DNA of 64,000 nt, from the NCBI GenBank assembly GCA_049976445.1, contig JBMFIF010000001.1, positions 24,634-88,633 of the forward strand, read 5' to 3'. Source of the DNA: Thermoprotei archaeon. Its GTDB lineage: Archaea > Thermoproteota > Thermoprotei > Gearchaeales > WAQG01. Made by a program: the position numbers and the translations under genes. The stretch's first letter is position 1. Every line of letters begins with the position of its first letter. Below the pieces are notes generated by a model. That model was not told where the DNA came from, ran no database searches, and worked only from the letters and a program-made list of their open reading frames with translations. Of the stretch, positions 3,827 to 62,380 are shown piece by piece.

Positions 3827-3845
3827 TTCTTCTATATTATTAAGG

Positions 3846-3938
3846 GGGCCGTAGTCTAGTTTGGTCTAGGAAGTTTAAAAAACCTAGAGTACCAGGCTCG
3901 GGCCCTGGAGATCGCCGGTTCAAATCCGGCCGGCCCCA
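3846..3938 (+). tRNA. tRNA-Pro (anticodon CGG) with an ~18-nt non-canonical intron in the D-stem 3' strand
   Basis: Acceptor is GGGGCCG/CGGCCCC plus discriminator A, followed by U8. D-arm is GUCU-AGUUUGGUCUA-GGAU once the intron AGUUUAAAAAACCUAGAG is removed. Anticodon arm is CCAGG-CUCGGGC-CCUGG (CGG). Variable loop is AGAUC and the T-arm is GCCGG-UUCAAAU-CCGGC. The intron forms a CUAGG...CCUAG hairpin across the junction. No CCA is encoded. Confidence 0.75.
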
Positions 3939-4031
3939 CTATATTAATGGTCGTCAGCAGCTCAATTAATCTAATTAAGAACAGGTTTCTCTAAGTAGTA
4001 GGACTTATATATTTTTTAAACGATAAATAAC

Positions 4032-5867
4032 TTGACCATTATGAAAAAGGCATATTATAGAACAATTATCAGTAGTATTATATTATTACTCATTATAATA
4101 ACATTAATAAGTAATGTTAATGTAGCCGCAGGAAAAACAGTGACTGCAGTGAGACCTACATTATTACAAAGATTTTATATGAATTCTACAAGTACTCAAT
4201 CAGACTTTAATGACCCATTTTTTGCTTTTGGAAGGGACCCGAGACCAAATCTTAGTACTAGTGGATATTGGAGTTGGCAAGATTATCCGTATAGTGTACC
4301 ATATGTAACTCCGCAAACTATTAAAATATTCACAAACGTTGCATCAAATGATATAACAAAGACGGGATATCCTCCATTAATAACAAGTAAAATTGTTAAC
4401 TTACCTTCAGGTAGTTATTCTAAAATATTGTTAAGGGTTGATGTACAATTAAAGAGTGTAATGCCTAGTAGATTAGCAGTAAATTATGATAGAGCACTCT
4501 GGATATTTGTAGATGGGGTACCACTTCTCATAGGGACAACAGCACAACGATATAGTTATACTGTAATATCGGATGTAACATTCTTATATCATCTTTTAAC
4601 TGGTACTCATAACTTTACGTTTGTACTTATAAATTATGTGATACCAAGTCTTGGACTTACTGGATATTTTATAGCAAATGTTACATTACTTTATTACCCT
4701 GGTGAAAAACCATCAAACATTGCGACAGACGTAGTACCATTATGGTCAAGTGGAATAAATAATTGGAGGTCTGGAGTTGCTTGGGCTGTACTTACATCAT
4801 CGAAGAATATAGCATTACAAAACGTGACAATACCAGGGAACATAACAAAAGCATATCTATTGCTTTATACAGAAGGCGCTTCGTATGATGAGTTTTGGTG
4901 GTCTAACATACCTACAAATCGTGAAGTCTTGGTTTATAGTGATAGTAAGTTAATAGCAGTATCACAACCGTTTCCAATAATTTACACAGGTGGTATAAAT
5001 CCGTTCATGTGGAGACCAGTACCAGGAATAAACACTTATGCATTCCAACCATTATTAATAGATATAACACCATATATACCATTCATCATCGGAACTCATA
5101 CCATAAAAGTCACTATAACTAATAACCAAAATTATTGGCTAGTCGGAGGAGCATTGCTACTTACCAAAACAAATACAACAGTAAGCTATAGGTTCTTAGG
5201 CGACAGCCCACAACTAATAGCAAATAAAACAACAAGCACAACACCAACTACAACTATATTCAATAATACAATGACATATACGAACACTGCATCACTAAAT
5301 ATTACAATAGGCTCACAAACAGTCACTTACAAAACAGAGTATAAGCTCAATTTGAACGCTATTCAATCATATAATGATATATGGTGGAATTCAACAGTAA
5401 CTCAAACATGGTATTATAAAAGTAACTGGTTAAATAAAACAGAATCCTCACGATCGTATTCATCATTAAACGTGAACTACGGTGAGATAATACAAGTATA
5501 CGGCGATATAAGTAAAGCATCGACATCGAATCCTGTACCAGCAACCTTTAGCCTTATAGCTGATCTTAACCATAAATATGTAACAGAAACAGAGCACACA
5601 AATGCAACATCACAAGTTGCTACAGTTCATGCAGAACACGTCACATCAAATTCAATATTAGCAGGAACATTAGTATTCATAAGCCCAACAGGAGCAATAA
5701 TAACAGGTATCACAACACTTAGTAGTGTAACATCAAAATCGTTAAAAACTGAAGAAACACAAAACAGTATAAAATTTGTATCATTCATGAGAGATACAGT
5801 TGGAGGAAACTATTATCCACCACTTACGTATGAAATATTCGTAGATGTGATCTCAGTAAAGTGGTAA
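4032..5867 (+). CDS. Membrane-anchored, Thr/Ser-rich extracellular glycoprotein (hypothetical surface protein)
   Basis: There is an N-terminal TM/signal anchor (IISSIILLLIIITLISNV). The protein has very many N-x-S/T sequons and Thr-rich linkers (NKTTSTTPTTTIFNNTMTYTNT), typical of Sulfolobales surface glycoproteins. Confidence 0.5.
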   Translation: MTIMKKAYYRTIISSIILLLIIITLISNVNVAAGKTVTAVRPTLLQRFYMNSTSTQSDFNDPFFAFGRDPRPNLSTSGYWSWQDYPYSVPYVTPQTIKIFTNVASNDITKTGYPPLITSKIVNLPSGSYSKILLRVDVQLKSVMPSRLAVNYDRALWIFVDGVPLLIGTTAQRYSYTVISDVTFLYHLLTGTHNFTFVLINYVIPSLGLTGYFIANVTLLYYPGEKPSNIATDVVPLWSSGINNWRSGVAWAVLTSSKNIALQNVTIPGNITKAYLLLYTEGASYDEFWWSNIPTNREVLVYSDSKLIAVSQPFPIIYTGGINPFMWRPVPGINTYAFQPLLIDITPYIPFIIGTHTIKVTITNNQNYWLVGGALLLTKTNTTVSYRFLGDSPQLIANKTTSTTPTTTIFNNTMTYTNTASLNITIGSQTVTYKTEYKLNLNAIQSYNDIWWNSTVTQTWYYKSNWLNKTESSRSYSSLNVNYGEIIQVYGDISKASTSNPVPATFSLIADLNHKYVTETEHTNATSQVATVHAEHVTSNSILAGTLVFISPTGAIITGITTLSSVTSKSLKTEETQNSIKFVSFMRDTVGGNYYPPLTYEIFVDVISVKW

Positions 5868-5944
5868 AAAATTAACATAAACTTTTTTTATTACTTTTAT
5901 GATATAATGAAAAATCATAAAAATTACTCAAGGAACCGTTTCGT

Positions 5945-6255
5945 CCCCCGAATTTATTCATAGAGATGAAGGACTCTAAAAACTATTATGAGAGGATCCC
6001 TCCACCTCCAGGTCTGCGCCCGGTAAGATTTTCCCTCGCTAATGCCCACAGAGCTTAAGCCTAATACTGGGCGTGGCATTGAGTAGTTCCGGCCGCAGGA
6101 GTCCATACTAAGGAGACATACATACGTGCTTCTAAGCTCTGTGGGCATAACCTAGTGAGCTGTTTTTGGCTCCTGGTTGTAGCTAGTCGGCCTTTGCATC
6201 GATACCATTATCCTAAGCTTTCGACTGAAGTCAGGAGCGTCTGACTTGTTTAGGA
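5945..6255. ncRNA. GC-rich (~50% GC) structured non-coding island of unknown identity; candidate stable RNA (RNase P RNA or another ~300-nt RNA); strand unresolved
   Basis: GC content rises sharply against the AT-rich background. A long imperfect helix pairs 6043-6059 (GCCCACAGAGCUUAAG) with 6129-6148 (CUUcUAAGCUCUGUGGGC) and encloses about 70 nt. A perfect 7-bp hairpin AAGUCAG-GAGCGU-CUGACUU lies at about 6228-6248. TATA-like boxes are present on both flanks. The only overlapping ORF (5954-6148) is weak. Confidence 0.35.
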
Positions 6256-6267
6256 ATTTTATAATAG

Positions 6268-6383
6268 TGGGGCCGCGGGGAGTTTCACCCTTTTCAGGGT
6301 TTTGAACCCCGGATCACCAGCGTTCCGGGAATAGGGGTATTCACCCCAGGCTGGCATCCTAATCCAGGCTGAACGACGGCCCC
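6268..6383 (-). tRNA. tRNA-Pro (anticodon GGG) with two introns: a canonical 37/38 intron (21 nt) and a T-loop 59/60 intron (19 nt)
   Basis: The minus-strand RNA reads as follows. Acceptor GGGGCCG, then U8 C9. D-arm GUUC-AGCCUGGAUUA-GGAU, then G26. Anticodon stem CCAGC / loop CUGGGG[UGAAUACCCCUAUUCCCGGAA]C / stem GCUGG. Variable loop UGAUC. T-stem CGGGG, T-loop UUCAAA[ACCCUGAAAAGGGUGAAAC]U, T-stem CCCCG. Acceptor 3' strand CGGCCCC plus discriminator A. After intron removal every arm is canonical. The D-arm and anticodon loop are closely related to the tRNA-Pro(CGG) at 3846. Confidence 0.7.
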
Positions 6384-6483
6384 GACTAAATTATTTATCT
6401 CGTAATAGTATTTAACTTTTATTGAGATTTACCTAAGATAGGTCAAGTTTTTAGCAATTCATAATATAAAAAATTAAAGATTT

Positions 6484-62087: not shown

Positions 62088-62380
62088 TAAATCTGGGGTT
62101 CGGGTTTCATTGGGCTTGATATCAAGCTATATCAAGCCCTCTCCCTTGGCATCATAGCCCTCAGGACCCCTTTTCATCGGGATCCATATCACTGGGCTCC
62201 GCCCGCCCGGGGTGACCCCAACCCACAACTCCACCCTCATCGATTCCTCCGGTTCATAGCTGTGGGGAAACCCCCGCATCCTGGCTTTCGAATGTGCGCC
62301 CCACTTGGGTCTTCACCACATACCCGCATTTGGGACGCTCTCTTGCATCACCGTGCTTCAATAAAGGAACTAAATCAACC
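62088..62380 (+). ncRNA. GC-rich (~55% GC) structured RNA candidate, ~290 nt, unknown identity (possible RNase P RNA-like or novel stable RNA)
   Basis: There is no ORF in this region. An abrupt GC island sits in AT-rich context. A perfect 11-bp hairpin GGGCUUGAUAU-CAAGCU-AUAUCAAGCCC is present, plus a GGGGAAACCCC hairpin and a GGGGUGACCCC hairpin. Short RNase-P-like strings (GGGCUCC ... GGGUGA ... AACUCCACCC) occur, but the P4 consensus GGAAAGUCCGGGC is absent. An upstream TATA box sits at the correct spacing. Confidence 0.35.

Follow-up and report, generated by a model that had tools for sequence, protein, structure and literature searches.

Does the GC-rich block at positions 6268–6383 encode a working tRNA, and if so, which one, and how are its interrupted parts joined? 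The stretch of DNA analysed here (hereafter the window; 64,000 nucleotides) is AT-rich (33.7% GC), with only four GC islands, of which the block is one. The window matches the JGI contig Ga0395593_059659 and is 99.4% identical to the metagenome-assembled genome (MAG) GCA_049970455.1 ('Thermoprotei archaeon'). An earlier note had read the block as a minus-strand tRNA-Pro(GGG); its coordinates proved exact, and a pair check, ARAGORN on the spliced 76-mer, a covariance model (R1, see below) and alleles from relatives all bear the assignment out. We conclude that 6383 to 6268 is very probably a functional tRNA-Pro(GGG) gene of an uncultured, heat-loving Thermoprotei archaeon, split by two independent, non-nested, protein-spliced introns. 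The pre-tRNA comprises three exons (40, 22 and 14 nt) and two introns (21 and 19 nt), arranged with their putative promoter elements as follows.

6417–6420, minus strand: A-rich BRE-like stretch preceding the putative TATA box.
6409–6416, minus strand: GTTAAATA, a putative archaeal TATA box and candidate promoter element, at about −33 to −26 relative to the mature 5' end.
6344–6383, minus strand: exon 1, tRNA positions 1–37 (acceptor 5' strand, D arm, anticodon stem 5' strand, C32 U33 G34 G35 G36 G37).
6323–6343, minus strand: intron 1, 21 nt, UGAAUACCCCUAUUCCCGGAA, at the canonical 37/38 site.
6301–6322, minus strand: exon 2, positions 38–59 (C38, anticodon stem 3' strand, variable loop UGAUC, T stem 5' strand CGGGG, U54 U55 C56 A57 A58 A59).
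6282–6300, minus strand: intron 2, 19 nt, ACCCUGAAAAGGGUGAAAC, in the T-loop at 59/60.
6268–6281, minus strand: exon 3, positions 60–73 (U60, T stem 3' strand CCCCG, acceptor 3' strand CGGCCCC, discriminator A73).

Along the minus strand, with the introns in parentheses, the gene reads GGGGCCG UC GUUC AGCCUGGAUUA GGAU G CCAGC CUGGGG (UGAAUACCCCUAUUCCCGGAA) C GCUGG UGAUC CGGGG UUCAAA (ACCCUGAAAAGGGUGAAAC) U CCCCG CGGCCCC A, and the anticodon GGG occupies 6347–6345. Exon 1 is the same in five alleles and is covered by R1. Removal of both introns yields a 76-nt cloverleaf in which all 21 of 21 pairs are canonical by explicit pair check: the acceptor stem GGGGCCG/CGGCCCC, the D stem GUUC/GGAU, the anticodon stem CCAGC/GCUGG and the T stem CGGGG/CCCCG, the last being fully complementary, as had been claimed. 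The spliced length had been given as 77 nt; it is 76 nt before CCA addition. CCA is unencoded at the 3' end of the gene, where CTA comes next, and is encoded in two relatives. Consistently, ARAGORN classified the in-silico spliced 76-mer as tRNA-Pro(ggg) with a perfect cloverleaf. All features of a class I tRNA-Pro are present, namely the anticodon loop CUGGGGC (U33, G37), the short variable loop UGAUC, A73 and a G1–C72 acceptor, and the predicted mature tRNA also carries G18G19 and the T-loop UUCAAAU. The anticodon loop, G37, A73 and the G1–C72 acceptor are established ProRS identity elements. Further supporting the assignment, the predicted spliced product aligned colinearly and without gaps to intronless tRNA-Pro(GGG) genes, with 59–66 of 76 positions identical. 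Two of the several intronless homologues recovered in a metagenome scan are L025 and L065. The junction contexts CCUGGGG-CGCUGG and UUCAAA-UCCCCG are both identical in L065, L025 is one base off at the second junction, and in L009 and L027 only the second junction matches.

Archaeal tRNA introns are excised at bulge-helix-bulge (BHB) motifs, of which the strict form, hBHBh', consists of a 4-bp central helix, two 3-nt bulges on opposite strands that hold the cut sites, and flanking helices h (exon–exon) and h' (intron–intron). For intron 1, the central helix pairs C32–G35 (CUGG) with CCGG near the 3' end of the intron; the bulges are GG^U and AA^C (a caret marks the cut), the inner helix h' is GAAU/AUUC (4 bp), and the outer helix h is the 5-bp anticodon stem. 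For intron 2, U54–A57 (UUCA) pairs with UGAA of the intron; the bulges are AA^A and AC^U, h' is CCCU/AGGG (4 bp) closed by a GAAA loop, and h is the 5-bp T stem. An explicit check found every pair of both motifs canonical, and our own strict hBHBh' scanner returned exactly 6323–6343 and 6282–6300 as minus-strand introns at this locus. The earlier statements that a 21-nt intron lies at 37/38, that a 19-nt intron lies in the T-loop at 59/60, and that BHB motifs can form at both junctions therefore stand; an R1 insertion further supports the first of these and an intron-free allele the second. The hairpin that had been described within intron 2 exists and suits a BHB, but its pairing is CCCU/AGGG around GAAA rather than CCCU-GAAAA-GGG.

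Strict hBHBh' motifs are abundant by chance: 356 occur in the window, compared with 275–332 in Markov shuffles. The motif was never used alone as evidence because it is equally common in shuffled sequence. The two BHBs at this locus coincide exactly with the boundaries that restore a perfect cloverleaf, and what goes beyond chance is the combination of BHB placement, covariance match and exon conservation, not the BHB count. Nearest-neighbour folding put the BHB conformation 2.4–2.9 kcal/mol per arm above the local minimum free energy (MFE), and 13 kcal/mol above it for the whole precursor; this is no objection, as such energies are usual for bulged, enzyme-stabilised motifs. In geometry, 59/60 is to the T arm what 37/38 is to the anticodon arm. 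Because the introns occupy separate arms and both BHBs are complete in the primary transcript, neither intron depends on prior excision of the other.

As had been predicted, default gene finders miss the gene. ARAGORN with default settings called no tRNA at the unspliced locus, and the Rfam tRNA model (RF00005) gave no match there at its gathering threshold (29 bits), nor at E ≤ 10 on 6200–6450. We discounted this silence as counter-evidence because two insertions break both tools by design. A second covariance model, R1, was built from five intronless tRNAs on unrelated contigs of other organisms, which themselves score 49.6–58 bits on the Rfam tRNA model. Searching the whole 64-kb window on both strands (128 kb of strand) with filters off, R1 gave exactly two matches: 3846–3938 on the plus strand (56.7 bits) and 6376–6295 on the minus strand (40.1 bits, E 2.8e-7). 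The covariance-model check that had been suggested for this locus thus came out negative with Rfam tRNA on the unspliced gene and positive with R1. R1 placed a 22-nt insertion at the anticodon loop of tRNA-Pro(GGG), and its match covers model positions 8–68 only. It ends at position 68 because the 5' end of intron 2, ACCCUG, imitates the rest of the T arm, and the gene finders fail because the same hexamer mimics the T-arm end.

That mimicry is also the starting point of a different reading, in which only the 37/38 intron is spliced and the T-loop insert is a retained expansion or the scar of a mobile-element insertion. ACCCUG can close a pseudo T arm, CGGGG-UUCAAAA-CCCUG, which Rfam models and R1 pick up; tRNA gene 3' halves are common integration targets (PMC4090602); and a Bathyarchaeota locus, L003, has a duplicated tRNA-Pro 3' end. 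However, the pseudo T arm leaves the acceptor stem unclosable beside it, and R1 stops at position 68 because the acceptor stem cannot close there. The insert moreover forms a strict hBHBh' whose cuts regenerate exactly UUCAAAU, a close relative (L085) is precisely insert-free, and 59/60 is also where ARMAN-2 (PMC3239211) and three further tRNA-Pro genes of archaea have strict BHB introns. We regard a retained insert as highly improbable; an origin of the insert as a scar is compatible with its now being a spliced intron.

ARAGORN with introns allowed (-i), as had been proposed, did find a tRNA, but on the construct lacking intron 2, and likewise on the L085 allele, it misplaced intron 1 by 3 nt, setting it upstream, and called tRNA-Ser(gga). 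It is scarcely credible that the locus encodes a different tRNA with a shifted anticodon-loop intron, such as tRNA-Ser(GGA): ARAGORN ignores the BHB rule, and cuts made by that rule yield CUGGGGC, with anticodon GGG and G37. The long variable arm required by tRNA-Ser is absent, and the body shares its 59–66 of 76 identical positions, G37 and A73 included, with intronless tRNA-Pro(GGG) genes. The tRNA-Ser(gga) call was dropped on these grounds, the BHB rule and the homologues both giving Pro(GGG).

Syntenic loci were gathered through the neighbouring hydratase/dehydrogenase protein and one metagenome scan. They provided five distinct alleles, with DNA identities of 99% (L088/L001), 90% (L085), 87% (L080), 82% (L082) and 80% (L081). 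The exons are identical at 76 of 76 positions across the five alleles, and average pairwise identity falls from 88% in intron 2 to 76% in intron 1, 59% over the upstream 45 nt and 39% over the downstream 25 nt. This is the pattern expected of BHB introns: in the five alleles the introns diverge faster than the exons but retain the BHB core. The substitutions affect intron loops, the distal hairpin and bulge ends, and never the central helices; compensatory double changes are impossible in these helices, as one strand is exon, and the sample is five alleles only. Intron 1 is 21 nt in the window and 26–27 nt in relatives, with the same BHB core and a different interior; the window copy lacks 5 nt, by which the G-rich half of the distal hairpin is lost and the BHB core kept. 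Intron 2 differs in three other alleles by 1–4 substitutions, all of them in the loop or at the final bulge position, which is C, A or U. Despite the 59% upstream identity, all five alleles have a TATA-like octamer (GTTAAATA, GTTATATA or CTTAATATA) at the same distance.

These data bear on whether two insertions have turned a once-active tRNA-Pro gene into a pseudogene. In favour of decay one may cite the absence of a call by standard finders and Rfam, the 5 nt of distal hairpin that intron 1 of the window lacks relative to its relatives, and the position of the gene next to a lineage-specific, rearranged 2.3-kb segment. Against it, no exon position varies among the five alleles, while identity is 39–59% in the flanks and 80–90% in neighbouring coding DNA; the insertions keep perfect BHB geometry wherever they are present among the alleles; and the promoter-like TATA box is retained. 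A tRNA with a GGG anticodon is normally required for CCC and CCU codons, and these decoding rules also speak against loss of the gene. We judge inactivation very unlikely and retain the reading of a functional two-intron gene.

The most informative allele is that of L085 (GCA_964615525.1; 4896–4997, minus strand), the closest distinct relative. Its 37/38 intron (26 nt) is present and the 59/60 intron is precisely absent, so that the gene reads GGGGTTCAAATCCCCG and its UUCAAA-UCCCC equals the predicted spliced junction. Read as a natural 'spliced' allele, L085 confirms the junction of intron 2. By parsimony from the identity values, not from a tree, a recent and precise loss of the 59/60 intron in L085 is probable; loss is favoured because three more distant alleles all carry intron 2. 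Replication slippage was considered as the origin of this allele and rejected, since slippage between the flanking A-runs would yield UUCAAAAU or UUCAAACU and UUCAAAU is observed. The L085 assembly is of moderate quality: N-runs adjoin the gene and interrupt the tRNA-Pro(CGG) next to it, and the hydratase gene is broken into two ORFs. In three more distant syntenic relatives (L084, L090 and L091), no tRNA follows the hydratase gene.

How unusual is the T-loop intron? The earlier note had called it rare, which overstates the case: 59/60 recurs in ARMAN-2, at the junctions of permuted tRNAs and in tRNA-Pro genes on three unrelated archaeal contigs. Genome contigs were scanned for a T arm, a 59/60 insert and an acceptor; among the matches listed were a tRNA-Pro(CGG) from Nanoarchaeota and a duplicated 3' end from Bathyarchaeota, and no cultured relative. 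A metagenome scan gave 76 matches, mostly chance, of which six were useful: L054 and L063 carry the two-intron gene, L010 and L070 the 59/60 intron only, and L025 and L065 are intronless tRNA-Pro(GGG) genes. The search patterns were built on the tRNA-Pro T arm, and the matches hold no information on whether 59/60 introns are specific to proline.

The tRNA-Pro(CGG) of the Nanoarchaeota MAG (L002, 566–659, plus strand) has a single strict hBHBh' intron of 16 nt at 59/60, and the tRNA-Pro(GGG) genes of L010 (minus strand) and L070 (plus strand) have single strict hBHBh' introns there of 31 and 30 nt, respectively. A UUCA/UGAA central helix is common to all three introns. In the Bathyarchaeota MAG (L003, 420–484, plus strand), the 3' part of a tRNA-Pro stands in tandem duplicate (GGTCCGGGGTTCAAATCCCCGCGGCCCCACCA, twice), which looks like an integration/excision (att) scar at the T arm and acceptor end. 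The region of this putative scar is the region that the 59/60 intron interrupts in the tRNA-Pro(GGG) of the window.

Genes for tRNAs with several introns, or with introns at non-canonical sites, are well known from Crenarchaeota, Thaumarchaeota, ARMAN and others; 673 non-canonical introns have been counted in 217 genomes (PMC8450103). The gene type is thus already known in archaea, and the two-intron tRNA-Pro(GGG) adds a further example. Among the nearest counterparts is the ARMAN-2 pre-tRNA-Pro(GGG), which has strict BHB introns at 53/54 and 59/60; the ARMAN-2 pre-tRNA-Cys(GCA) has one at 59/60 (Fujishima et al. 2011, PMC3239211). The two pre-tRNA-Pro(GGG) genes share the isoacceptor, a strict hBHBh' intron at 59/60 and the number of introns, but the second intron is at 37/38 here and at 53/54 there; the comparison is one of position and motif, not of intron sequence. 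The splicing endonuclease (EndA) would also differ, an alpha2-beta2 enzyme being expected in Thermoprotei and epsilon2 being that of ARMAN.

Multi-intron tRNAs of Thermoproteales have been reviewed (PMC4033280, PMC8450103), and the two introns of the Thermofilum pendens pre-tRNA-Pro are removed by an alpha2-beta2 EndA, as cited in PMC3241643. Similar to those of T. pendens and Thermoproteales, the gene described here is crenarchaeal and has more than one BHB intron, including one at a non-canonical site, and the same chemistry is expected. In some Thermoproteales tRNAs the introns are so close that one must be removed before the next BHB forms (PMC8450103); here, in contrast, the introns are in separate arms with each BHB complete, and the host is not a member of Thermoproteales. 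Site 59/60 also serves as a BHB processing site in permuted tRNAs, those of T. pendens (iMet, Tyr) and C. merolae joining at this position (PMC3218864, PMC3978253). In permuted genes, however, the 3' half lies upstream of the 5' half and a circular intermediate is formed, whereas tRNA-Pro(GGG) here is colinear. Finally, the EndA of Aeropyrum pernix needs no extra factors to cleave a strict BHB located away from the anticodon loop, that of the D-loop intron of pre-tRNA-Thr2(UGU) (PMC3241643). That precursor differs in arm, isotype and intron number (a single intron), and is nearer to the tRNA-Pro(CGG) at 3845–3938 than to tRNA-Pro(GGG).

The earlier note had placed the locus in a crenarchaeal setting, and the neighbouring genes agree with it. 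The best named matches of the neighbouring hydratase/dehydrogenase are Thermoprotei and Sulfolobales MAGs, followed by Pyrodictium, Desulfurococcales and Acidilobus. Judged by these protein matches, the host is a Sulfolobales/Desulfurococcales-like lineage of Thermoprotei, not of Thermoproteales. The endonucleases described for non-canonical positions are (alpha-beta)2 or epsilon2, and a loop-bearing alpha2 enzyme has been proposed for Korarchaeota (PMC5829648, PMC4033280). From taxon and literature, the host EndA is expected to act at non-canonical sites (PMC5829648, PMC4033280). A Pfam scan of ten window ORFs turned up no gene for EndA or RtcB.

We infer the transcription, enzymes and step order set out here, together with any selective value of the introns, from archaeal tRNA biology (PMC4090602, PMC3241643, PMC5829648). 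Transcription would start from the TATA/BRE promoter about 30 nt upstream of tRNA-Pro(GGG). In the precursor, bases 32–35 would pair with the 3' part of intron 1 and bases 54–57 with the 3' part of intron 2. EndA, expected in this clade to be a heterotetramer of broad specificity, would cut each bulge after its second nucleotide, and an RtcB-type ligase would join the exons of 40, 22 and 14 nt. RNase P and RNase Z would trim the ends and CCA would be added, giving a 76-nt class I tRNA predicted to read CCC and CCU. Folding of the T-loop, the D-loop/T-loop contacts and T-loop modification would be possible only after removal of intron 2, because bases 54–57 are paired with that intron in the precursor.

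The surroundings of the gene contain the following features.

3845–3938, plus strand: tRNA-Pro(CGG), R1 56.7 bits; mislabelled by ARAGORN as tRNA-Phe(aaa), 3845–3939.
3939–6263: lineage-specific 2.3-kb segment between the convergent tRNA-Pro genes, holding the PNGase A-family gene and the HEARO-like block.
4032–5867, plus strand: PNGase A-family gene inside the 2.3-kb segment.
6023–6245 (wider GC-rich region about 5950–6260), minus strand: HEARO-like block, starting 22 nt past the 3' end of tRNA-Pro(GGG) on the same strand.
About 62090–62360, minus strand G-rich: fourth GC island, up to 67% GC compared with 34% overall.

The tRNA-Pro(CGG) carries an 18-nt strict hBHBh' intron (3872–3889) in the 3' strand of the D stem, at about 24/25, with central helix CUAG/CUAG, outer helix UUUGGU/ACCAGG and inner helix GUUU/AAAC. 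It is 93–94% conserved in relatives, where the intron loop differs (for example, GGUUGUGAAACCUAGAG in L089). The two tRNA-Pro genes are convergent; they are spaced about 50–150 nt apart in most relatives but 2.3 kb apart in the window species, and the spacer in L080–L083 (47–143 nt) shows no similarity to the window segment. Both tRNA 3' ends run into CTAT in the window, so CGGCCCCACTAT forms a 12-nt inverted repeat around the 2.3-kb segment. The PNGase A gene is found at the same place in L085; L086 and L087, more distant relatives, have it after pyruvate:ferredoxin oxidoreductase genes.

The GC-rich block extends past the tRNA to about 5950. From 6245 to 6023 it matches HEARO (RF02033, the IscB omega RNA) with 45.9 bits (E 2.2e-8 in a 421-nt search), a score that does not reach the gathering score of 83. 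The full model length is aligned, with many non-canonical pairs in the 5' half. The MFE z-score of the block is unremarkable (−1.2), and it holds a 14-bp perfect inverted repeat (6045–6058 and 6133–6146). No IscB-like ORF adjoins the block; the sole overlapping ORF has 64 amino acids and no Pfam match. The block has no matches in plasmids or phages, its long stem has none in viral contigs, and it is not associated with the PNGase A gene at that gene's other genomic location; it was seen only in the window, L001 and L088 (one species). Between it and tRNA-Pro(GGG) there is no oligo-T run of at least 5. We treat the HEARO-like block as an unconfirmed lead. It would be a long shot that 6245 to 6023 is an orphan relative of IscB guide RNAs, co-transcribed with the tRNA and freed by tRNA 3' processing, with the trailer as its 5' 'guide'; if true, this would be a natural tRNA–guide-RNA cassette in a crenarchaeon without an adjacent nuclease gene.

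The fourth GC island falls within the 640 nt that separate a GH31 glycosidase ORF from an ATP-grasp ORF, and searches gave no Rfam match for it at E ≤ 1. Its minus strand folds at −112 kcal/mol (z = −3.4; none of 200 shuffles as stable) and contains a perfect 11-bp hairpin, GGGCUUGAUAU/AUAUCAAGCCC. The island is probably an unclassified structured RNA.

Knowledge of tRNA splicing itself is unchanged by the two-intron tRNA-Pro(GGG), and its main value is for annotation. As run here, ARAGORN and Rfam both miss tRNA-Pro(GGG), and the neighbouring tRNA gets a wrong label from ARAGORN, so that annotating a genome from this lineage with the two tools would leave it seemingly without a decoder for CCC and CCU. 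The locus is also a natural experiment on tRNA intron turnover, with close genomes that have or lack the 59/60 intron and with 37/38 introns of 21, 26 and 27 nt. tRNA introns have been proposed to protect against integrating elements (PMC4090602), and the allele pairs described here lend themselves to studies of how introns are lost precisely and to tests of whether those in the 3' half shield integration target sites.
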